Of a stretch of DNA of 64,000 bases, positions 8,308-19,756 are shown one piece after another. The DNA is from Marispirochaeta sp. (GTDB lineage: Bacteria; Spirochaetota; Spirochaetia; JC444; Marispirochaetaceae), in assembly GCA_963676835.2 (NCBI GenBank), contig CAXXFF010000001.1, positions 128,001 to 192,000 on the forward strand, given 5' to 3'. The notes under the pieces were generated by a model. It did not search any database. It was not told where the DNA came from and saw only the letters and a program-made list of their open reading frames with translations. Position 1 is the stretch's first letter, and every line of letters starts with the position of its first letter. A program made the position numbers and the translations under genes.

Positions 8308-8391
8308 AAAAAAAACCGGCGTCCGAAATCGACAAGCGATTTGTTACACCGGTTTTCCGTAGTTTATTGACTCCGGCAGAAGCCGGTTTTT
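8308..8391 (-). terminator. Hairpin/terminator downstream of the displaced tRNA-Val 3' fragment
   Basis: AAAAACCGGC...GCCGGTTTTT inverted repeat with a T-tract on the minus strand; inner CCGGC-agaa-GCCGG hairpin. Confidence 0.5.
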
Positions 8392-8436
8392 ATGGGCGAT
8401 GACGGACTTGAACCGCCGACATCCTGCTTGTAAGGC
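8389..8436 (-). repeat. att direct repeat (3' half of tRNA-Val), distal end of the integrated element
   Basis: TTTATGGGCGATGACGGACTTGAACCGCCGACATCCTGCTTGTAAGGC is identical over 48 bp to 19680-19727; identity ends just past the anticodon loop. Confidence 0.97.
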
Positions 8437-8564: not shown

Positions 8565-8634
8565 CTTGAACTGCGCAATAAGCAGGATGTCGATTTCTAC
8601 CCTTCTCGCCGACACCCTGTCTTACAAGCAGTGA

Positions 8635-8835
8635 GTCTCCCAGGCATTACTTGACCTTGGCATAAAGCGGGCAGCTTTGCTGGAAGAGAGGGCGAAGGAC
8701 AACCAGCGCGCTGGTGGAGGCGACCAGAAATCGGGTTTTCAGAAATCTGAAAAGGCGATTGAACCAATCAACACCACCAAAGAAATAGCAGACTATGCCG
8801 GGGTCAGTATAGACACGGCATCGAAGTATAAAAAG
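8635..8835 (+). pseudogene. Fragment resembling the HTH-containing part of phage ParB-like proteins
   Basis: QALLDLGIKRAALLEERAKDNQRAGGGDQKSGFQKSEKAIEPINTTKEIADYAGVSIDTASKYKK; in-frame TGA at 8632-8634 and no N-terminal domain. Confidence 0.5.
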
Positions 8836-8929: not shown

Positions 8930-8970
8930 AAAAAAAAGAGCCGCCCCATATCATCACGACATAGGACGGC
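8930..8970 (-). terminator. Rho-independent terminator ending the element's structural operon
   Basis: Minus strand GCCGTCCTATGT-cgtgatg-ATATGGGGCGGC followed by TCTTTTTTTT; the 12-bp stem pairs fully with G-U on this strand. Confidence 0.75.
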
Positions 8971-9097: not shown

Positions 9098-9553
9098 TTA
9101 AACCATATTACAGATCATCTTCACTGTTGCTTCCATGCTGGCCGTGCGCACAGCTTCCAGAGGATCATTCAGGCGTGTTCCAATCTCTCCGCGTATGCTT
9201 TTAATGTTCTGTTGCTGCAGCCAGACAAGCCGGTCTTCTACTGCTTGCCGGATTACCGGAGCAATGTCAGTATCAAACTTCTTCAGGTTGCTGGAAACAT
9301 AACTTTCCGCAGCTTTCAGGTCTTCTTTCTTCTTCAGTTCAATTGCAGTGTCTTTGAGGGAAAAAATAGCCCGCTTTATTCCATCATCTTTTGTCTTCAG
9401 TTCAACAATCAGCCGTGTAAACTCGGCTTCGTCTGTACCGTTGGCAAGGGCATCAGCCAGCTTCTTTTCGTTATCCTTGATCTGCTTGGTAAGGGCTTCT
9501 TGATCATTCCGAAGCTGCTGAATTCTATCGTTTACAGCCTTGCTTGTTTTCAT
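9098..9553 (-). CDS. Coiled-coil hypothetical protein (element)
   Basis: Heptad-like K/E/Q/L-rich sequence; start overlaps the protease stop (ATGA). Confidence 0.75.
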   Translation of the reverse strand: MKTSKAVNDRIQQLRNDQEALTKQIKDNEKKLADALANGTDEAEFTRLIVELKTKDDGIKRAIFSLKDTAIELKKKEDLKAAESYVSSNLKKFDTDIAPVIRQAVEDRLVWLQQQNIKSIRGEIGTRLNDPLEAVRTASMEATVKMICNMV

Positions 9554-10212
9554 ATCGCCTTCCTTTTATACGGATCTGCTGCAAGGATTGCTTTCGCCTG
9601 GTCGCGGATACCGTCAGGGCGTGAAATCAATCCAATACAGGCTGCAACCTGGGAGAAGTCCGGCTTGCTGTAGGATTCATTGAACAAGACTGCAGCAGAG
9701 TTGACTGCAGCTTCTTTCGTTGTTCCAGATTCACCACCTATATAGATGTCGCCGAAGCCGGCATCGACGATCTCCTTCCCGAAGAAATAGGTTGTTTCGT
9801 CCATCAGGTTAAGAATTTCTTCAACACTTTTCCCGGTGCGCCTGGAGTATGTTTCTGCAAGCTGATTATCCAGTCTTTCAAGCAGGACCGACTCTGCAGC
9901 ATGGTCCTTGGCATTTCCTATCGAAATGCCTGATGCCCGGTGAATCATCATCACCGCATCCGGTCCCACTGAAATTACATCGGCGGCCATGGCCATTACA
10001 GACGCCATGCTGGCAGCAAGTAGAATTTGCACCTCAACCTTGCCGGCATAATTCTCGATTTCCCGGTATATCTCGCGGCCGTCAAACACATAGCCGCCCG
10101 GAGAATTGATTACAATTAAAAGACTCTCCCCTGCAGCATCCTTTAATTGTTCCCGGAAATCGGCAGGCGTCACATCTTCACCGATAAAACCCGATATATA
10201 CAATGTTTTCAT
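9550..10212 (-). CDS. ClpP-like head maturation protease
   Basis: INSPGGYVFDG, AASMAS (catalytic Ser), MMIH (His), YSRRTGKSVEEILNLMDETT, VDAGF. Confidence 0.88.
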   Translation of the reverse strand: MKTLYISGFIGEDVTPADFREQLKDAAGESLLIVINSPGGYVFDGREIYREIENYAGKVEVQILLAASMASVMAMAADVISVGPDAVMMIHRASGISIGNAKDHAAESVLLERLDNQLAETYSRRTGKSVEEILNLMDETTYFFGKEIVDAGFGDIYIGGESGTTKEAAVNSAAVLFNESYSKPDFSQVAACIGLISRPDGIRDQAKAILAADPYKRKAI

Positions 10213-10226
10213 ATCACCCCCAAATA

Positions 10227-10248
10227 TGCCCGCCGGTTAAGGCGGGCT
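10227..10248 (-). terminator. Hairpin after the major capsid gene
   Basis: GCCCGCC-ggttaa-GGCGGGC inverted repeat between the capsid stop and the protease start; weak U-tract. Confidence 0.45.
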
Positions 10249-10260
10249 ATTGGCTATTCC

Positions 10261-11328
10261 CTATGTCCAACCGCTTCCGGTTGAAACACAAGTGTGATTT
10301 ATGTTTGCGGGAAGATACATAAACCGCGCATTTGACCGCAGCCATTCAACAGGAGGATCATTATCAATGAAAGAATCTATGACCAGATCCCCTACTTCCC
10401 GAACAATCTGCTTGCTGGGTGAAGTCACATCAACGCCACGATTACAGCGGTACCCAGGGCCGCCAAGATTGAACATGACCGCTTTGTCGACCGGCATGAA
10501 AGGAGCAGTTGAACCATCCTTGGTGGCAAGGTAAGGCCAATTCGGCTCGTAGGTGAGGATCCACACGGGTACAGGAACGCCGGTAATACTGTATCGTGCA
10601 GCAACGCGGAGACCTTCCGCACCTTTGAGCAGATCGGGAATAAGTTTTTCCTCGATCATGCTTTCAGGATTGGTGTAGTTCCGCTTTTCTTTGACATCTG
10701 CATCAGCAGTCCAGTCAGCGAACCAGTCAGATCCCATAAGAACCGCAAGGTTTCCGCGGGGGATGCCAAAAGGCGTCAGAGCGTCATACATAGCCTTGAG
10801 CGCGGCATCCATCGTAACGGAAGAGAAATTTGCGGTAAGCGTAAGTGATGAATCACGCTCAAAATCTATTTCCTTGACAGTTTCATCGCCATTGTATGCA
10901 GTGAATTTCCCGGTCAGGAATACATCAAGGGCGGCTTTCACGCGAGTCATGCGCGCAGCTGCAAGGAACCCTTTCGGCCCCTCTACAATATGGTGAACTG
11001 CCTGCCGTACATGGTCGGCCGCTCCAGACTTAGGATCTACGCCGGCAACGGCAGAATCCCGCAGGTGTTCATCAATTGGCGTTTTTTCCTTGAATACCGG
11101 AGGCTCAAATTCGTAGCCATCGCCAGGTTCATATTCCCTGACATGGGCTTCCTGCCCTTTTGTGAGCGCACGAAGCGCGAAAGGGTTGCCGGTATACGTA
11201 TCAATTTTGACGGTGGTGTTCCGGCTGTTATCCAAGGAAGGGAAAAGCACTTCATCGATCTGCTTTCCTTTAAAAGCCATATCCTCATAATAAAGTTTTG
11301 CGGTTTCGGTTAAAATCTGAATAGACAT
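10261..11328 (-). CDS. Phage major capsid protein (lambda gpE-like)
   Basis: 355 aa; LFP..., FEPPVFKEK, A..V..TGKF, IDFERDS and C-terminal DPP...S...YLPAN pattern typical of gpE-family capsids; follows a decoration-sized gene. Confidence 0.8.
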   Translation of the reverse strand: MSIQILTETAKLYYEDMAFKGKQIDEVLFPSLDNSRNTTVKIDTYTGNPFALRALTKGQEAHVREYEPGDGYEFEPPVFKEKTPIDEHLRDSAVAGVDPKSGAADHVRQAVHHIVEGPKGFLAAARMTRVKAALDVFLTGKFTAYNGDETVKEIDFERDSSLTLTANFSSVTMDAALKAMYDALTPFGIPRGNLAVLMGSDWFADWTADADVKEKRNYTNPESMIEEKLIPDLLKGAEGLRVAARYSITGVPVPVWILTYEPNWPYLATKDGSTAPFMPVDKAVMFNLGGPGYRCNRGVDVTSPSKQIVREVGDLVIDSFIDNDPPVEWLRSNARFMYLPANINHTCVSTGSGWT

Positions 11329-11339
11329 CTATTGCCTCC

Positions 11340-11654
11340 TTAACGCAGAATGATGCCGTTGGTGAGTGCGGAATTCCGCAGATCATCTGTAACAGTGAGG
11401 GCTGCATCTGAGTCATCAACCAGAGCAGATTCCAGAATTTCAGATCCAGACACAGCAACAAGCAGCAGCCCTTCAGAAGAAAGGGTTTTATCTTCCCAGA
11501 CAATGCCCTGGATGGCTGAAGCGCTGTATTCGTAGTTGTCGTTTGTGTCGTTGTAAGCAACCGGCATACCGATGTAATAGGTATCAGCGGCGGCGGTTAG
11601 CTTCTTGGTTTTGATTGTCCCGGCAATGGGATAGGTTCCGTTGTATTCGGACAT
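11340..11654 (-). CDS. Putative head decoration (gpD-like) protein
   Basis: 104 aa, beta-rich, GI..ED and C-terminal LRNSALTNGIILR; directly upstream of the capsid gene; GGAGG RBS. Confidence 0.7.
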   Translation of the reverse strand: MSEYNGTYPIAGTIKTKKLTAAADTYYIGMPVAYNDTNDNYEYSASAIQGIVWEDKTLSSEGLLLVAVSGSEILESALVDDSDAALTVTDDLRNSALTNGIILR

Positions 11655-12004
11655 TATTTGCCTCCTTTAAGAATTGCAGCAGCCTGTTCTCTTACTGCAT
11701 GCGGCTTGAAATCTGCGTCCTGCCATGGTTCGCGTGCGGCTGAGATTCCACCGATTTCGGCAGAATTGTTTTTAGGTGGCACGTGATAGACGGCTGCAAC
11801 CTTCTCGGCGTAAGCCTGTGGTGATAAACCATTCTTGATTGCATCAAGCAATTCATCAGACAGCCTTGCACCTGAATCATTCAGCAACGCCATAATGTTG
11901 CTGGTCGCGGCGTTCCTACCCTGGACTTCTGCGGCAGTGATACACATTTCATGCTCTGCACGCAATTCCGGGTGGCTCTCGAAAACATGTTTTAGGGTTT
12001 CCAT
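11654..12004 (-). CDS. Putative stand-alone capsid scaffolding protein
   Basis: LKHVFESHPEL...G...I.AL...AIKNG resembles the C-terminal scaffold segment of phage S49/ClpP proteases; GGAGG RBS. Confidence 0.55.
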   Translation of the reverse strand: METLKHVFESHPELRAEHEMCITAAEVQGRNAATSNIMALLNDSGARLSDELLDAIKNGLSPQAYAEKVAAVYHVPPKNNSAEIGGISAAREPWQDADFKPHAVREQAAAILKGGK

Positions 12005-12190
12005 AATCCCCTCCCAATTTATACCGGATTCCCGGCGATTTTTTCCGGCTCAAGCCGGATGTCAACTTGTCAATTACAGCGCTATGTCAACCAATCTCTG
12101 GGTGACAAAACCAATTTTCACCTCTCAGAAATCAACACACGCGGGTCCGGCTTTGGTTTCCGCATATATCCGTATAAGAACCTATTTGCC

Positions 12191-14257
12191 TCACAGATTG
12201 GCACCGCTCACCACCACTTCGCCGGCATCCACGCCCTTCTGCATCACTTCCCATATGACCGATTCGTCAAGCTTGGCCACGACAGTCAGGTTACCGGCGA
12301 TACTCTCACCCCTGGGCGTTACATGGATGTTTTCGCCTGGGTTAAACCGGTACAATTGACTATCCCCTCTGCTCGATGCTGCCGATTCAGGCACCACGAA
12401 ATTACCACCGGTTTCTGCTGGTATAGGTGTTGATAGAATCTTGATCTGCTGTGCCAGGCCGGATGCCAGTACAGCTGCAGCGGCAATGGTATTGGCCGGG
12501 AAAGGCACTTCGGCAAGTACACGGGTAAATGCAAGATAGCTGTTTATTGCCGCGGATGCTGAAGCAAGACCCTTTTCAAGAATGGCGGCTTCCCGGCTTT
12601 CATCTGAAAAGTTGCTGAAGATAGAAGCAAGCCCGCTGAGAAGATCGCCGGTTGCACTTATTGTTGCCTGACGGACTGCCAGTCTGGCAGCTTCCTGTTG
12701 GGCAACAATTGCAGTGAGGTTTCTTTCTGCCTCCCCTGCGGCTTCTGCTGCTTCAATCTGAGAAGTGACCCATTCATCAATCCAGCTCTGCCTTGTTTCC
12801 TGCGCGGTCCATAACGCCTCTTGGGCTGCTGTATTCTGTATGAGCTGTTCCTGCTGTAGCGTCAGTGCTTCTGTTTCTGCCTGGATGGCAAGTTCTGCTT
12901 CTTTTGATAATTGAACCGCTGCAGCCTTCTGAGCATTGAGAGAAATAGCGGCATTTTCCTCTTCCACATATGCAAGAGAGAGCATGGAATTTACTCGATG
13001 GAGAGACGTTTCAGCCTCCTCAAGTTTTTTGGTAACATTGATTCCGCGTAGTTTCTGCAGGTTGAGTTCATTTATTACATGTTCCTGCCATTTGGCCGCT
13101 TCGGTAAGGGTATCGACATCGCGGGCACCGTTTACCATAACCGCGTCAAATGCTTTCCGGCCGGCGGTGTAGCTGTTCATAGTAGTGAGGATGTCAGCAA
13201 GGAGGTTCTTTGCCGGGGTCAGTGCTTCAAGTACAAATGCGCCCCAATGTTCTTTTGATTCAACAACAGCTTCATTGAGACGCCGGCTGACATTGGCGGC
13301 ACTGTCTGCGGTTCGTGCATAATCACCGATGGCGTTTTTACTCTGTTCTGTGGCAAGTGCAAGGGTAGCATAAATCTTCGCCTGCTGCTCCGATGAAAAG
13401 GTCAGTCCTTGCTGTGCCTGTTCAAGCATTTCAGCTTTGACCATGGCATCATTGATAACGATTCCATAAGTTTTCAGGGCTTCTCGTTCGCCAGAGTAAG
13501 CGCTGGTTAAAGCCTTTGAGACTGCCTCTGCCCCACCTCTTGCATTGGTGAAGCTGGCAAGGTCAATGGCAAGTCGGTTGGTCTGGTCTGAAAGGTTCAA
13601 GGCTTCATCTGCTGCAAGACCGAAACCGGTTAACAGATCCCCGGTATTCCCTAAAAGCTTCCGGGCAGTAGAGCCGGCAAGGTCGAAATCTTCGGCAAGT
13701 GCATTGGCCATACGATTTGATTCTGTTGTCACCGAATCAAAGACAACTTCATATTTACTTAAAATCTCTTGGGCTTCGGATGCCGCTTCTGCGGATTCCT
13801 TGCTCACCTCTATCAGTTTGGAAAAACCATTCTGTGCAAGGCTGATAACTGAAGCGCCCAGGCCAACCATAACGCCATCCATGAGGCTGAATTTGCTGCT
13901 GGCTTTTTTGGCTTCTGCGGCTGCATCCTCAATTTCCGCGTCAAGTTGTTGGTATCGTTTTTTGAGAGATAGAACTGCTTCATCCTGCGGATTCAGTCCG
14001 TTCCGAATAAGCCTTTCAATTTCCCTGCGCAATCCCGCATGTTCTGCAGCTAAACCCTCAACCGGTCCCCGTGTCGCAGTGATTGCAGCGGCAGCCCTTT
14101 GATTCTTCTGAATAAAGCTGTCTATGGCATCATTCTTAAAAGACTTTTGAAACTTCTCTATCCGGGCAGCCTCTTTCTCTGTGAGCTGCCCGATTGACTT
14201 AATATCTGCAGCCGCTTTATCAAAATCGCTTTTAATTGTTAGGTTTATTTGTGCCAC
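12191..14257 (-). CDS. Phage tail tape-measure protein
   Basis: 688 aa, Ala-rich and helical; core LA.DLASF.N...A..AL.SA..GERE.LK.YGIVI.D and GD.ART.DS.AN; C-terminal ETGG.FVVP...DS...NPGE; GTG start with GGAGG RBS. Confidence 0.85.
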   Translation of the reverse strand: MAQINLTIKSDFDKAAADIKSIGQLTEKEAARIEKFQKSFKNDAIDSFIQKNQRAAAAITATRGPVEGLAAEHAGLRREIERLIRNGLNPQDEAVLSLKKRYQQLDAEIEDAAAEAKKASSKFSLMDGVMVGLGASVISLAQNGFSKLIEVSKESAEAASEAQEILSKYEVVFDSVTTESNRMANALAEDFDLAGSTARKLLGNTGDLLTGFGLAADEALNLSDQTNRLAIDLASFTNARGGAEAVSKALTSAYSGEREALKTYGIVINDAMVKAEMLEQAQQGLTFSSEQQAKIYATLALATEQSKNAIGDYARTADSAANVSRRLNEAVVESKEHWGAFVLEALTPAKNLLADILTTMNSYTAGRKAFDAVMVNGARDVDTLTEAAKWQEHVINELNLQKLRGINVTKKLEEAETSLHRVNSMLSLAYVEEENAAISLNAQKAAAVQLSKEAELAIQAETEALTLQQEQLIQNTAAQEALWTAQETRQSWIDEWVTSQIEAAEAAGEAERNLTAIVAQQEAARLAVRQATISATGDLLSGLASIFSNFSDESREAAILEKGLASASAAINSYLAFTRVLAEVPFPANTIAAAAVLASGLAQQIKILSTPIPAETGGNFVVPESAASSRGDSQLYRFNPGENIHVTPRGESIAGNLTVVAKLDESVIWEVMQKGVDAGEVVVSGANL

Positions 14258-14258
14258 G

Positions 14259-14540
14259 TTATGCCTCCTGCTCTTCGGGAACGATCAAACCGGGATAATA
14301 GATTTTGGCCATCCAGCTATCGGGAAAATCTTTTTGAAACATTGCGCTCAAATCGTCCCGGGACATACCAAGCAACCGGATCACCTTTTGCATGCGGCCT
14401 TCAATGATGGTTGTCCCCTTTTCACAGTCTCGAAGTGATTCAATCAGCAGATTGATTGAAGTTTCTATTGCATGCAGAGCTATGCCGGTGCATACATGCT
14501 GGTCCGGTAGTAATCCTGTTTTTTTCTTTCGTGCCATCAT
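14259..14540 (-). CDS. Small hypothetical protein (element)
   Basis: GGAGG RBS; fills the gap between the helicase and tape-measure genes. Confidence 0.65.
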   Translation of the reverse strand: MMARKKKTGLLPDQHVCTGIALHAIETSINLLIESLRDCEKGTTIIEGRMQKVIRLLGMSRDDLSAMFQKDFPDSWMAKIYYPGLIVPEEQEA

Positions 14541-14553
14541 CTATTGCCTCCAA

Positions 14554-15843
14554 TCAAAAAATATCAAGGACATTACTGGCGCTTTCGTTACCAGTAACCC
14601 CAGGTGTAACCGGTAACCCCGGTAACTCGGTAACCGAGTCTTTAGAAACCGGGTTACTACGGTTTCCAGAGTTACCATGGGTTACTGCGGTTACCGGGGT
14701 TACCGGTTCTTCACCTGCAATGCAGTACACACCAGACATGCTGTTTAATTTCCCGTCCTTAGACATTGACCACATTAATTTCTTTATAGCTGACTCACTT
14801 CGAGAGTCACCGGTTTCTTGTAAATGCCGGTGCATATCTTTTGGTGTCATTGGACCGAGACGTTTAATGATGTCAAAAATTATTTGTCGTTCTTCAGTTT
14901 TTTGTATTTCTTGCACTTCACCTTTGATTGACCAAGTGCCGATGGAAGCATCAAAATCCATCGCATATTCTTTCTCTTCTACGTCTCGACCGGTGATTGA
15001 AAGGACGGCTTGGCGTGACATGCGATCACGACGTAAAACCATGGTTGTATCTGCACCCGCGGCAAAAGCCTGTGATCCAAGCACTGAAGAAACAAAATCA
15101 GAAGCCTCGGCTTTTCTGGTGTGATGAACGCATACTATTGCTGTCTCTGTTTCGTCGGCAACAGCTTTTAATTCACTTACAAAATTGGTTACACTGTGGT
15201 AATCATTGCCATCCTCAATGTGTGCAAACATGCCAAGGGTATCGATCACGCATAGACGGGTTTCAGGAAACTTCTCAAGCCATTCCCGCAGTTTTTCAAC
15301 TGGTTTTTCCCTGGGCCAAGAAAGAACGATTTGACAATCATCGCGGGGTTCAGCGCCTGTCTTGATTAAACGGCTTTTCATTCGTCGAGCAGTATCTTCA
15401 AGTGCCAGGTACAACGTGGGGCCTGGATCAACTTTTATTTTACCGAGGACATAACCACCAGCCGCGACGGCAGTTACAACCGAAAGGACCATCCAAGACT
15501 TCCCCATTTTTGAAGGACCAGCAAACAAGGAATATCCTTCAGGTATCAATCCGGGGACAATCCATTTCGGTTCTGGAAAATCAGTTGAAAATAGCTCTCT
15601 GGTGCTCCACACGATTTTTCTTGTCTTATTTTCAGGTATATCAACCTGAACGTCTTTGTAGACGCCTAACTGCTCTTCAACCAGATATCGTGCATTGAAA
15701 GGAGGTGTCCCGCAAAAGGTTTTTTCCCCTGCCTGAATAAACTTTTCAATTTCACTTAAAATATTCAGCAGTTCATCAGGGGTTTTAAGTTTGAGACTTT
15801 CAGCAAAATCTATTCCTTCCGTTTTTTTAATACTTTTTGACAT
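14554..15843 (-). CDS. AAA_25/RepA-like replicative helicase with putative C-terminal winged helix
   Basis: WIVPGLIPEG, Walker A GPSKMGKS, YLALED, Walker B CVIDT, VHHTRK, LGS..F...AD, GRD. Confidence 0.87.
   Translation of the reverse strand: MSKSIKKTEGIDFAESLKLKTPDELLNILSEIEKFIQAGEKTFCGTPPFNARYLVEEQLGVYKDVQVDIPENKTRKIVWSTRELFSTDFPEPKWIVPGLIPEGYSLFAGPSKMGKSWMVLSVVTAVAAGGYVLGKIKVDPGPTLYLALEDTARRMKSRLIKTGAEPRDDCQIVLSWPREKPVEKLREWLEKFPETRLCVIDTLGMFAHIEDGNDYHSVTNFVSELKAVADETETAIVCVHHTRKAEASDFVSSVLGSQAFAAGADTTMVLRRDRMSRQAVLSITGRDVEEKEYAMDFDASIGTWSIKGEVQEIQKTEERQIIFDIIKRLGPMTPKDMHRHLQETGDSRSESAIKKLMWSMSKDGKLNSMSGVYCIAGEEPVTPVTAVTHGNSGNRSNPVSKDSVTELPGLPVTPGVTGNESASNVLDIF
14587..14703. repeat. Iteron-like GTAAC/GTTAC cluster; candidate replication origin
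   Basis: GTAAC at 14594, 14606, 14613, 14622, 14630 and GTTAC at 14587, 14653, 14671, 14681, 14690, 14699. Confidence 0.7.
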
Positions 15844-16181
15844 CAACGATCCCCAGCCAACCAACTAAGAAAAGGGTCCGCAAGATCTGCAACATCATCT
15901 GTTTTAGGTTTATCGCCTGTATAAAAAAAGCGTTGCCCTGGTAGCAGAACTGTCACGCCCGGCGTTACCTGTCCAGCCTTGATTAACCTGCCTATGACAT
16001 CTTCTGTGGATACCCGATAGAAGAGCAGATACCCATCAACGGCTGTTACGGCAGCAGTTTTTTCGGCAAGTCTTGTTGTGATCCCACGTGTTTCTTTGTA
16101 ATCCGAAATCGCAGCTCTTCCGTATTCTTTCGTGACATGTACAGCAATGATGCCTGACGGGACATTAGCCTTTTGCAGCAT
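15843..16181 (-). CDS. Hypothetical protein, possibly a degenerate Prim-Pol domain
   Basis: Directly upstream of and coupled to the helicase; motif order resembles a bifunctional primase-polymerase N-terminal domain without catalytic residues. Confidence 0.5.
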   Translation of the reverse strand: MLQKANVPSGIIAVHVTKEYGRAAISDYKETRGITTRLAEKTAAVTAVDGYLLFYRVSTEDVIGRLIKAGQVTPGVTVLLPGQRFFYTGDKPKTDDVADLADPFLSWLAGDR

Positions 16182-16353
16182 AAGAACTCCGGTGATCCGG
16201 TTTCATTGTTTCGGAAATTGTCTTTTCGATTTTGCTGATACGGCCGGCATGAACAGTGACCATAGCACCAACGGACCCAAAGGGATTGGCCGCGATCTGT
16301 TCTTGAAAAAACTTGGCAACCGCCAGAATTTCGGGTTCAAGATTGACGGTCAT
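16165..16353 (-). CDS. Small DUF2292-like protein
   Basis: PFGSV...VTVHAGRISKIEKT pattern; start overlaps the upstream stop. Confidence 0.5.
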   Translation of the reverse strand: MTVNLEPEILAVAKFFQEQIAANPFGSVGAMVTVHAGRISKIEKTISETMKPDHRSSYAAKG

Positions 16354-16532
16354 CGGCGTCCTCCAACAGGAACACGCCTTGAATCAATCCATTCTCGAAT
16401 TTCTTCAGGATCGAAGAAAACCCTTGAGCCAATTTTAATGTGTGGTAGCTGGCCTCTTGAAACCAGCGCCCTCACGGTCTGCTCCGCTAACGGTAGTTCC
16501 GCTTTTATTGTTTTATAAGTTAGAAGTGCCAT
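16350..16532 (-). CDS. AlpA/excisionase-like HTH protein
   Basis: LLT......L.L...TVR.LV..GQLPHIKIG.RV.F....I.EWI; AGGAGG RBS. Confidence 0.85.
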   Translation of the reverse strand: MALLTYKTIKAELPLAEQTVRALVSRGQLPHIKIGSRVFFDPEEIREWIDSRRVPVGGRR

Positions 16533-16629: not shown

Positions 16630-17328
16630 TTATATAAGATTATTAAAAGTTTCTCGTTCCATCTTCGAAAAAAAATGATCATTTTTTGATAGCGTCTCGT
16701 CTTCCTTTCTTTGAACCGCTGGGACAATATCAGCATAGGAGCCATCTTTCTTCCTGTATACATATTGCCCAAATAATTCAGGTATTGTGGTTTTTTCTGA
16801 AAAGAACTTGCTGTAAATACATTTAGCCCTACCAATGGTTCCGGTGAAAATATATTTCCCGCTATCTGCCGGATCCTTTTTAACTAAATTTAGGGTTACA
16901 AGAGTTGAATGGAAGGCATCGGTGAAGTTGACTACATGGTTCCCACCATCCTGTTGATTCCAGTCCTTAGGTCCGCATCCAAATACACGTAGCTTTGATT
17001 CAATTTCTTCAATAAGTCCGTTAATATTATTAAAATCATCAGGATGTTCATTACCAAGCATCTCATCTAAGTATTGCTTTTGCCGCAGAGCGTGACTGCG
17101 CTGTTTTTTTAGGTTTTCTATCCTGGCTTCATTTGAATTTGGAAATTCTTCCCGTAGCTCACGCATGTAATCACTAAACGTTCTGCCAGCAATTGTGTAT
17201 TCTGGTCCATTTTTATATAGGCCTATGCTCTGGTTAAATCTATATCGCTCTGAACCGGTCACAGGCTCACCCTGAGAATTACCTTCAATAAAATTTATAG
17301 CATCTTTGTAAAATTCATCATCAGTCAT
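16630..17328 (-). CDS. Hypothetical accessory protein (element)
   Basis: 232-aa AT-rich ORF with its own promoter-like site and structured leader. Confidence 0.75.
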   Translation of the reverse strand: MTDDEFYKDAINFIEGNSQGEPVTGSERYRFNQSIGLYKNGPEYTIAGRTFSDYMRELREEFPNSNEARIENLKKQRSHALRQKQYLDEMLGNEHPDDFNNINGLIEEIESKLRVFGCGPKDWNQQDGGNHVVNFTDAFHSTLVTLNLVKKDPADSGKYIFTGTIGRAKCIYSKFFSEKTTIPELFGQYVYRKKDGSYADIVPAVQRKEDETLSKNDHFFSKMERETFNNLI

Positions 17329-17421
17329 TTAGCCCGCCCTCCCTTGACGGTCCCGGAAGAGAAACAACCAGGGCAGGCGGCCGGGAAAGCCGCTTTTCCT
17401 CCCGTCGGAGTAGCCCTGGCC

Positions 17422-17430
17422 ATTATAGCA
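17422..17430 (-). promoter_or_regulatory. Extended -10 promoter (TGcTATAAT)
   Basis: Minus strand TGCTATAAT directly upstream of the structured leader of 16630-17328. Confidence 0.55.
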
Positions 17431-17433
17431 TTA

Positions 17434-17715
17434 TTAAACTGCAACAGCCGCTGCGGGTTCGGTCAAGAGGCCATTTGCCCTGGCTATATTGCGGCATTCC
17501 TGAAATATTTTCTCAGCTTCATCAAGATCAAAAATAATCGATGAGTCCTCAAAGACATCCTCAAAAGTTACCGTAAATTCCCCATCCATAAGGAAACCGT
17601 CAAGCTCAATCACACCGCTGTCGCTCTTCACTTCGCGAACAATGCCTACCACACCAATTTCCAGAACAACCACTCTTCCAATCAAACTTCCAGCATACCT
17701 TTTGCTTACGATCAT
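17434..17715 (-). CDS. Small hypothetical protein (element)
   Basis: GAGGAG RBS; beta-rich N-terminus. Confidence 0.6.
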   Translation of the reverse strand: MIVSKRYAGSLIGRVVVLEIGVVGIVREVKSDSGVIELDGFLMDGEFTVTFEDVFEDSSIIFDLDEAEKIFQECRNIARANGLLTEPAAAVAV

Positions 17716-17773
17716 CTTTTTTCTCCTCGCCTCTCGGCTTCTTTTATTTTTTCCGCGCCCATACGGGATACGG

Positions 17774-18172
17774 TTATTCTTGAATTAAATCTAACCAATA
17801 CGCGGCTTTTTTCTTTGCATGGAATTTCTTAAAACTAAACCACCCATAACACTGCTCTTCTGTTATCTCCTTTAAAGTTTTTCCTATACTGCTTCTGTAA
17901 TCTGAAAGACGGTCAATTTTTGATAGGTACTTTAAAAATACGTCATGCCATTCGCTATGGGGGGTCCCTGGAACCTCGATCCAATCTTGATGTTCAATGA
18001 AATAATCCTCATCAACGCCTATATTAGATCCGGCCCATTCTGTCTCCATGGTTTTTATATTCAAGAAACATCTATCATCCATAGTGAACGGATCATCTCT
18101 TTCAAACGCCATAACAATAGAATCGTTATCATCAAGTAGGCCGGCTTTTTCTTCAATGTCAAAATAATTCAT
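17774..18172 (-). CDS. Hypothetical protein, UPF0158-like
   Basis: Start MNYFDIEE after a GAGGTG RBS; FLNIKT, WIEVP, WFSFK...A.YWL pattern. Confidence 0.55.
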   Translation of the reverse strand: MNYFDIEEKAGLLDDNDSIVMAFERDDPFTMDDRCFLNIKTMETEWAGSNIGVDEDYFIEHQDWIEVPGTPHSEWHDVFLKYLSKIDRLSDYRSSIGKTLKEITEEQCYGWFSFKKFHAKKKAAYWLDLIQE

Positions 18173-18185
18173 TAAATTCACCTCA

Positions 18186-18377
18186 TTAACTACTTTTCCG
18201 CGTCTCACAGACACGGTTTTCTCGCCTATATTGTCGGTCGATTTTCCCATCCAAATAGCCACTACTCCAAGACAACCCATCAACCCCTTTTGGTGGTGGA
18301 TATGGCCGGCGCTCAAATCCTGCAGCATACCCCTTCTTCCAATCCTCAAGGTCAAGTTCGATTCTGAACTCACTCAT
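18186..18377 (-). CDS. Small phage-type hypothetical protein
   Basis: Start overlaps the integrase stop (ATGA); repeated W..GY..G motif. Confidence 0.6.
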   Translation of the reverse strand: MSEFRIELDLEDWKKGYAAGFERRPYPPPKGVDGLSWSSGYLDGKIDRQYRRENRVCETRKSS

Positions 18378-19576
18378 GAAACTGCCTCTTTAATTTGCCA
18401 GAATTCATCTATCGCCGGCTTTGAAGGCAGAGCCTTTTTTATTGCCCGTTCAAGCTGGAATGGATCATAAATATCTGTAACTGCTGAATTTTTATGACCT
18501 AACAGGCCCTGAAGTATCGAATCTGGAACATCAGCGGAAATCATCAGTTCGCGCATTTTGCTTGTATAAGTGTATCGAAGTGAATGAACATCGATTTCAC
18601 GTTTTATGGTCTTTGCTGCAGCCCGCTTCAGTCTTTTTAAAATGTAAGTTTGGTCGAATGGCTCACCATCCCACATAAAAAGGGGCGTATCATCGTAAGG
18701 AGGGTGACCGATAAGTTCTTGAATATCATGCAGGGTTCTTTCGGGTAAAAGCGCAATCCGGCGTGGGTCTTTGTCCGGGTTCCGCTGCCGTCCCGGTAGA
18801 CCATATTCGCCGGACCGGTACATCTGCCGGAAAATCTTGATTGCCCCGGCCTCCGGCATTACATCAGACTTCCACCACCCCCGAGCCTCACCGCTGCGGG
18901 CTCCGGTACTCATGATGGTTTCCATTAGCACGCCAACATGGAAATCGTCCCACACCTGAATAAATGCATTCCGTTCTTCAGGAAACAATAGCACTATTTC
19001 CGAATCCGTAAGCGGTTGCCGGTGTTTCACTCGCTTATTACCATAAGGCTCTATCTGGGGAACAGACCGGATAATATTCTCCCGCCTAGCTTCCCGGAGT
19101 ATGATATTCAATGTATAGATAATCTGGTTTTTTGTACTGTTGGCCAGATTGTGCCCGCTGCCGTCTTCAGTCTTGAGCTTGTATGATTTCAACCGCAAGA
19201 GCCATTTCTCAACAGCTGGGGCAGTTATTTCATTAAGCTTGCATCCTCCCCACTTCGGAAGAATGTAATAATCAAGGTGCCCTCTTCTATCTTTTGCAGT
19301 ATCCTCACAGACAGACCGGTCTTTTGCATTCTGGCGGGCGACATAATCACACTTGCCCCAGACAAAAAAATCCTTTGTGTATTCTGCAAGTGTGGGGTTT
19401 TTGACTGAGGGGTCATATTCATGTAAATGTTCTTTTGCCCAGGCATGGGCGCGATATTGGTTAGTTTCACCTGTCGAGAGAGTTTTAATAACTTTCCCGG
19501 AATTATCTAAAATTCGGACATAGTAGACTTTTTTCTTTCCAGATGTACGCTTAAAAACACGAAAACCGACAGCCAT
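18374..19576 (-). CDS. Tyrosine integrase
   Basis: N-terminal arm-binding-like region; catalytic R (TGARSGE), H-x-x-R (HSLR), GH, Y (TDIY) intact; GGAGG RBS before ATG at 19576. Confidence 0.93.
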   Translation of the reverse strand: MAVGFRVFKRTSGKKKVYYVRILDNSGKVIKTLSTGETNQYRAHAWAKEHLHEYDPSVKNPTLAEYTKDFFVWGKCDYVARQNAKDRSVCEDTAKDRRGHLDYYILPKWGGCKLNEITAPAVEKWLLRLKSYKLKTEDGSGHNLANSTKNQIIYTLNIILREARRENIIRSVPQIEPYGNKRVKHRQPLTDSEIVLLFPEERNAFIQVWDDFHVGVLMETIMSTGARSGEARGWWKSDVMPEAGAIKIFRQMYRSGEYGLPGRQRNPDKDPRRIALLPERTLHDIQELIGHPPYDDTPLFMWDGEPFDQTYILKRLKRAAAKTIKREIDVHSLRYTYTSKMRELMISADVPDSILQGLLGHKNSAVTDIYDPFQLERAIKKALPSKPAIDEFWQIKEAVS

Positions 19577-19593
19577 AACGCCTCCATTCCAGC

Positions 19594-19617
19594 TTGGTAA
19601 CAAGCATGGTAACAGTA
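19594..19617 (+). promoter_or_regulatory. Putative integrase arm-type site pair (right end)
   Basis: TTGGTAACAAGCATGGTAACAGTA, two TGGTAACA units, matching 8541-8564. Confidence 0.65.
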
Positions 19618-19683
19618 AGGGTTAAAACCATCGGTTTTCCGGTAGGTCTAACGCTAAGTCCTTAATAAATAAAGACTTATTTA

Positions 19684-19756
<73 letters not shown>

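Follow-up and report, generated by a model that had tools for sequence, protein, structure and literature searches.

Introduction

The tape-measure protein (TMP) sets the length of a phage tail, at about 0.15 nm per residue. Why do some phage satellites swap it? The question is raised as an open one by work on the PLEs of Vibrio cholerae, which shows that their TMP becomes part of the virion and makes tails 10 nm shorter, and that transfer depends on it, 96–99.9% being lost upon its deletion; PLE11 also evades a TMP-targeting inhibitor by means of its TMP (PMC12987554, Nature 2026). The same paper lists some cf-PICIs with tmp (Extended Data Fig. 10 legend; PMC12987554). EPIPs of Mycolicibacterium are 11-kb elements with TMP, scaffold, and capsid genes whose tails are longer than those of the helper, and TMP substitution has been proposed for them; the preprint lists a major capsid protein yet also says that capsid proteins are lacking (PMC12822802). 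The cf-PICIs encode their own portal, TerS, TerL, HNH, and head-tail connectors, and tails are all that they need from a helper (10.1101/2022.09.08.507074). Finally, the PICI and cf-PICI models of SatelliteFinder forbid tail genes, so TMP-bearing islands may be undercounted, and spirochaetes are not mentioned in the part of that paper available to us (PMC10085698).

The idea of TMP substitution is thus already published for PLEs and EPIPs, and some cf-PICIs also carry TMPs. A literature search found no paper on spirochaete satellites, although supplements could list such elements. Here we analyze a 64,000-nucleotide stretch of a Marispirochaeta sp. contig (hereafter the window, to which coordinates refer) that contains a satellite island with a TMP gene. 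From its gene content, and by analogy with the systems above, we propose with a probability of roughly 0.6 that this island is a PICI-like satellite that builds its own heads and places its own, shorter TMP in otherwise helper-made tails.

Results

The Island and Its Genes

A repeat search delimited an 11,291-bp island at tRNA-Val(TAC) (19680..19756), bounded by perfect 48-bp att repeats: one copy (19680–19727) is the 3′ end of the tRNA gene, and the distal copy (8389..8436) is 100% identical to it. All main island genes are on the minus strand, as are the tRNA gene and the terminator-like hairpin at 8940..8970. Next to the tRNA gene lies a tyrosine integrase with an intact frame (18374..19603; PF00589, phrog_1), followed by a variable low-GC region (16630..18377) that occupies the regulator position and carries cargo (o232, o93b, o199, and o63, the last with a homolog in the island of genome G009). 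Then come an Xis/AlpA-like HTH regulator (16350..16532; PF12728, phrog_66), the small backbone gene o62 (16165..16353), which is 54% identical to its counterparts in both islands of genome G072, and o112 (15843..16181), which has no assigned function and gave no homolog in comparisons with phage loci or sister islands. An AAA_25 replication helicase (Rep; 14554..15864; PF13481, E 2.4e-30) contains within its 3′ end iteron-like direct and inverted repeats (14592–14708, including I1 and I6) that may be a candidate origin. The 93-aa backbone gene o93 (14259..14540), without assigned function, has a homolog in the G009 island (E 7e-9).

The next four genes form what we call the cassette: the mosaic 688-aa TMP (12191..14257); o116, a stand-alone scaffold (11654..12004); o104, a likely head decoration protein named by position and without a family match (11340..11654); and a major capsid protein of the lambda gpE type (10261..11328; PF03864, phrog_29). 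Beyond them lie a backbone ClpP-type head maturation protease (9550..10212; NF045542, above cut-off) and o151 (9098..9553), a backbone coiled-coil protein with homologs in sister islands that serves as the marker of this satellite family. The o151 model is a helical hairpin (pLDDT 86.5); fold searches returned generic helical hairpins only, and a weak Psu/Sid lead comes only from the Atlas (Psu row 0.87). A hairpin with a U-tract that resembles a terminator by consensus match (8940..8970) lies 3′ of the last gene.

Scans of 17 ORFs against Pfam, PHROG, and NCBIfam found no terminase, portal, connector, tube, baseplate, or tip gene; likewise, neither HNH nor head-tail connectors nor TerS was found among these ORFs, and the island's non-coding stretches contain no cos-like match. 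In one public sequencing run, which may be the source sample, the island lies on a single 11,303-bp contig at a depth of 12.6 versus 12.0 and 11.3 for the flanks, and the contigs of this run that hold the island showed neither an excision joint nor raised depth.

Several smaller features were noted in passing. A promoter candidate at 12065–12038 was discounted, as the scan gave 8 sites against 11.5 expected. A GC-rich hairpin between the capsid and protease genes (10228–10247), which is missing from the output of the terminator scan, could reduce protease expression. On the plus strand, a start-less fragment (8650–8830) has a weak LacI-type match as its sole family match; we take it to resemble a phage ParB-like protein in its C-terminal HTH part. 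At 8571–8631, immediately inside the att end, the tRNA-Val/att sequence recurs in two incomplete, inverted copies (repeats I8 and I24).

The TMP Gene

What identifies the 12191..14257 product as a TMP? Its gene has a GTG start with AGGAGG 6 nt upstream and begins one base past the o93 stop. The protein matches the PHROG 3336 tape measure family (E 1.8e-8), with no match to a Pfam TMP family or to NCBIfam. Several of its 251 homologs carry PF10145/PF20155 or are named tape measure, and a tblastn search matched 372 phage records, with 12 of 15 among the matches listed annotated as tape measure. The homologs occupy ordinary tail operons, between the tube or chaperone genes and the tip gene (loci L063, L060, L070, L059, and L038–L040). 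The sequence contains 17% Ala and hydrophobic stretches at residues 122–142 and 580–609. A PDB sequence search with the TMP profile A2 returned two TMPs amid coiled-coil noise. The gene o93 sits where a tail chaperone usually would; it did not match phage chaperones, an Atlas search gave no informative match for it, and its homologs occur in sister islands that have no TMP, which marks it as a backbone gene. The initial annotation had described a full-length tape-measure-like ORF between replication and head genes with no tail tube, chaperone, or baseplate gene nearby, and both observations hold: the ORF is intact, matches a PHROG family, and lies between Rep (14554–15864) and the head genes (10261–12004), and no island ORF matched any of the three absent classes, o93 being backbone.

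The TMP is a mosaic. Residues 1–120 are 60%, 47%, 44%, and 29% identical to the TMPs of L063, L060, L070, and L059, respectively, all full lambda-like phages. Residues 121–345 are about 70% identical to a widespread core that is shared by an HK97-type prophage whose tip differs (L038). Residues 346–440 match only the TMP of a co-resident satellite (35%, E 7e-11; next best E 0.018), and this match suggests that satellites have a TMP lineage of their own; a search with residues 340–500 returned the window TMP alone. Finally, residues 611–688 are 58% identical to L063. Among 207 TMP-like sequences screened, 17 are related at both ends; these 17 are 722–964 aa long (median 827) and all exceed 688 aa, the shortest by just 34–78 aa, and genomic context is known for 3 of them. 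At 0.15 nm per residue, the 688-aa TMP predicts a tail of about 103 nm, versus 123–155 nm for phage TMPs of 817–1032 aa. Conserved termini with a different length, the pattern that the initial annotation had named as support for substitution, are thus found against lambda-like siphophages of the same capsid family. For a TMP of a co-resident helper the comparison had no partner, as the island's own genome contains no helper.

The TMP C-terminus points to a particular tail tip. Its motif is followed by one tip gene family (223–266 aa) in 4 of 4 cases by single-sequence search and in 6 of 9 by profile, and this family is present at 8 of 98 loci overall. The survey covered 98 loci at which the TMP end is complete and a further gene follows, with 92 distinct TMPs; related phages among them are not independent, and the tip genes are called Dit-like by position only.

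The pattern of a mosaic middle between kept ends would also be expected if the TMP served mainly DNA entry, either by escaping exclusion or by fitting the spirochaete envelope, with tail length incidental, and there is a precedent in the escape of the PLE11 TMP from a TMP-targeting inhibitor (PMC12987554). We judge this reading very unlikely: we identified neither an exclusion gene nor an inhibitor gene in the island, in which o93, o112, and o151 have no assigned function, and the reading overlaps with TMP substitution, differing from it in the benefit only.

The Capsid Cassette and Its Likely Donors

Capsid profile scans led to full lambda-like siphophage operons with the order TerL (phrog_15), portal (phrog_21), protease-scaffold fusion, decoration, capsid, connectors, tube, chaperones, TMP, and tip. 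The window capsid is 54% identical to that of phage L063, o104 is 51–53% identical to the gene that phages L059 and L065 have between scaffold and capsid, and o116 corresponds to the C-terminal scaffold part of the L063 protease-scaffold fusion (E 7.5e-11; 32% identity to fusion residues 247–350). We propose that the cassette was likely captured from lambda-like siphophages. In L063, the TMP gene lies downstream of the capsid gene with six genes between them, whereas in the window island it lies upstream and the six genes are missing, from which we infer that the TMP was selectively kept or gained. The two closest capsids are P0123 (64%) and P0124 (62%). With the capsid as query, 1 of 401 genomes was positive, the island's own (G000); viral scans with single island proteins found no close copy of the cassette, and a capsid tree with a long-branch outgroup resolved no donor. 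The ends of ClpP and scaffold, compared by eye, share a similar motif (IRDQAKAIL, 9553–9600; VREQAAAIL, 11657–11700), possibly a capsid-binding helix that was kept on both proteins after the fusion split.

Could the TMP act against the helper alone? Interference with tail assembly is a known theme of phage defence. A decoy TMP might tie up helper chaperones or tips, leaving dead helper virions and a protected host, while the satellite itself used helper tails; the island has no chaperone of its own, and the TMP gene seems to come last in the replication operon, coupled to o93, as such a role would allow. We consider this quite unlikely, however, because the TMP is complete, keeps both of its ends, and has hydrophobic segments of the ordinary kind, because a decoy would have no need of a whole ruler, and because it arrives together with capsid genes.

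Sister Islands Share the Backbone and Lack the Cassette

Sister islands were found via homologs of o151; two (L191 and L192), truncated at contig ends, were left out of the counts. L189, in genome G072, occupies the same tRNA-Val site, spans 11,168 bp, and has an integrase 77.5% and an Xis 73% identical to those of the window island. L188, also in G072, is an 11,091-bp island at tRNA-Leu. L190, in G009, has a ClpP and an o93 that are 48% and 26% identical, respectively; a second att was looked for, and none was found. L193, in G102, spans 7,366 bp, has a Rep with 36% identity, and gave no ClpP match. The three congeneric sisters have a common order, namely integrase, regulator region, Xis, Rep/primase, o93-like gene, ClpP, and o151.

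None of the four sisters (L188, L189, L190, and L193) has a match to TMP, scaffold, decoration, or capsid, and the insertion point is visible. Because the sisters share the backbone and all four are without TMP and capsid genes, the TMP-scaffold-decoration-capsid block (10261–14257) is, on gene content, a cassette added to an existing satellite backbone. Similarly, both islands in the genus that were found through Rep are without TMP and capsid genes, and a TMP profile had no match in six other genomes of the host's family. As judged from these genomes, the TMP is accessory here and not a requirement of the satellite family, since all four sisters, including the one at the same att site, lack it. 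The satellite assignment itself is borne out by the att-bounded island and by a backbone common to sister islands; a TMP required throughout the family, by contrast, is contradicted by the same sisters. The initial annotation had named absence of the gene from homologous elements as a refuting condition for its substitution reading, and such absence is what the four sisters show.

TerS is a core gene of PICIs. In L189, a TerS-like gene (phrog_57, E 3.5e-5) lies between the o93-like gene and ClpP, at the place that the cassette occupies in the window island. The TerS-like genes of islands in G072 and G399 belong to phrog_57, the same family as that of the lambda-like phage L059. Two further observations concern the sisters. 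First, L188, L189, and L190 keep the ClpP-type head protease and o151 without a capsid gene, which suggests that these proteases may act on helper procapsids. Second, the window island, L189, and L188 are 11,291, 11,168, and 11,091 bp long despite their different contents, and these near-equal lengths hint at a packaging size limit.

The sisters also bear on whether the island is a decayed prophage, as its capsid, decoration, scaffold, and TMP genes, which resemble those of phages L063 and L059, might suggest. This reading is largely refuted, and we regard it as highly improbable. The order TMP-scaffold-decoration-capsid-protease is not derivable by deletion from the phage order protease/scaffold-decoration-capsid-...-TMP, the virion genes are all unbroken, and the backbone is common to 11.1-kb att-bounded sisters. 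Moreover, the ClpP groups with satellite ClpPs: a tree separated the window ClpP and three sister ClpPs from ten phage ClpPs with support of 100/99.

Other Islands with a Lone TMP

A second island lies in the same genome (G000:C3, about 166.8–175.0 kb; L010:1775–10018), at tRNA-Leu, spanning 8,188 bp between 56-bp repeats. Its genes are an integrase, a TerS-like gene (our reading, with weak profile support), an HK97 capsid, an HK97 protease, a 640-aa TMP-like gene, an HTH Rep, and an Xis, and its TMP shares the segment that matches residues 346–440 of the window TMP. Inverted tRNA-like copies lie just outside its att. A third island, at tRNA-Met (G399:C10, about 69–87 kb; L072 and L046), has an integrase, a primase, a TerS-like gene (phrog_57), and a lone 532-aa TMP; its second att is about 18 kb away, and no capsid gene was recognised in it. 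A repeat block similar to that at 14592–14708 follows its primase.

How common are such islands? Among 40 genome regions with TMP homologs, judged from ORF maps, 1 of the first 20 was an island (G399) and none of a further 20, four of which looked non-phage. Likewise, the best 80 of 205 viral loci, 79 of which were parsed, had no Rep/integrase match beside the TMP; in L094 an integrase lies 7.5 kb from the TMP, and a portal is also present. These counts are lower bounds, as the TMP profile A2 missed the G399 TMP.

These islands weigh on the reading that the TMP was captured recently and without adaptive value and sits as an undamaged passenger in a hybrid island that arose once, possibly a dead end for want of TerS, lost or never present. 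A single event of this kind would account for sister islands without the cassette and for a capsid query that found no second copy in 401 genomes, and the island has no TerS, no chaperone, and no sign of activity in one run. We nevertheless think it unlikely. In donor-type phages the TMP gene is not adjacent to the capsid gene and lies on the opposite side of it from that in the window island; residues 346–440, with their match to the co-resident satellite TMP only, suggest a satellite TMP lineage; and a TMP is carried by three unrelated islands.

Search for a Helper

The island's own genome (97% complete) has no match to TerL or portal families (PF05876, PF03237, phrog_15, PF04860, and phrog_21). 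A prophage remnant at tRNA-Thr (G000:C1, about 88–104 kb; L004) contains an integrase, a repressor, methyltransferases, and a ParB-like gene, and an IS lies close to its distal end; as a candidate helper it was rejected, as it has integrase, repressor, and early genes only and structural genes were not seen. The same contig carries an 11-kb island at tRNA-Thr (449–461 kb; L007) with type I restriction-modification and McrBC-like genes, as read from its ORFs. One of five genomes searched, counting G000, contains a lambda-like myophage prophage, in a congener (G096:C23, about 101–121 kb; L197). Its capsid and TMP are unrelated to those of the window, and it was rejected as helper for the window cassette; it is a possible helper of the TerS-bearing sister islands.

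Discussion

How might a satellite with heads, a tail ruler, and no further tail genes be transmitted? We propose that a lambda-like siphophage of the L063/L060/L070 type would infect the cell and induce the island, which would be replicated by Rep. The island's capsid, scaffold, decoration protein, and ClpP would form a head, probably a small one, around the portal of the helper, and helper terminase would fill it, since the island has neither portal nor terminase. Helper connectors and tube would be used, with the satellite TMP as ruler, and this TMP would use the helper chaperone and a tail tip of the type matching its C-terminal motif. The resulting tail would be about 103 nm long, versus about 123–155 nm predicted for candidate helper TMPs. 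By analogy with PLEs, satellite particles would likely gain preference in tail supply or in delivery; interference with the helper may be a side effect. In support of TMP substitution, the att repeats are perfect, the frames are unbroken, the ribosome-binding site is strong, and two further att-bounded islands also carry a lone TMP. Against it, all four sisters lack the TMP and capsid genes, the island has no tail chaperone and no TerS, no cos was found, and its genome has no helper; searches also gave no close copy of the island with its cassette. Of the substitution reading put forward in the initial annotation, the part that holds is a TMP with phage-type ends inside a satellite, while its sisters' lack of the gene makes it an accessory.

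Comparison with described satellites places the island between several groups. Judged from its genes, it would be like PLE1, PLE4, and PLE11 of V. cholerae in having a satellite TMP of non-helper length where the helper gives the tube and most of the tail. However, PLEs have their own tail chaperone (tac) and PLE11 also a baseplate hub (bhuB), neither of which the window island has; PLEs use the helper capsid protein, whereas the window island has its own capsid genes; PLEs parasitise a myophage (ICP1) in a Vibrio host, whereas the window island has a spirochaete host and a TMP matching siphophages; and the TMP is universal in PLEs and accessory in the window-island family. The nearest gene set, compared by description, is that of the EPIPs, which, at about 11 kb, combine an integrase with scaffold, major capsid, and TMP genes and for which neither portal nor TerL nor tube is listed. 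EPIPs differ in their serine integrase, TerS, and head-tail adaptor and stopper, whereas the window island has a tyrosine integrase and no TerS or connectors; in addition, it has a lambda-E capsid, decoration, and ClpP, and its TMP is predicted to be shorter, whereas EPIP tails are longer than those of the helper.

The cf-PICIs are alike in their int-regulator-rep backbone and in having their own capsid and protease, some with tmp, but the window island is without their portal, TerS, TerL, HNH, and connectors. PICIs (SaPI and Gram-negative) share with it the approximately 11-kb tRNA-anchored island, integrase, Xis/AlpA-like regulator, and primase/helicase; a TerS-like gene was found in sisters and not in the island itself. 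The island differs from PICIs in its extra four-gene virion cassette with a tail gene and in its spirochaete host. By its TMP, the window island breaks the PICI model rule of no tail genes. On the proposed mechanism, the window island works like a PLE or an EPIP, yet it is a member of neither, nor of the cf-PICIs.

The island extends TMP-bearing satellites to spirochaetes, and its sister at the same tRNA, of near-equal size and without the cassette, offers a natural comparison for what is gained from owning a TMP. If TMP substitution is true, it can operate in non-contractile tails and needs no chaperone from the satellite. The C3 and window islands have unrelated capsids and Reps and share a TMP segment that is found in no phage TMP screened. 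We raise tentatively, as possible and somewhat doubtful, the broader idea that satellites in spirochaetes maintain a pool of short, mosaic TMPs of their own, which they swap among themselves, and that such a chaperone-free plug-in may turn a PICI into a particle-builder. If so, the island would own the head shell and the tail ruler and would rent the portal, motor, tube, and tip.
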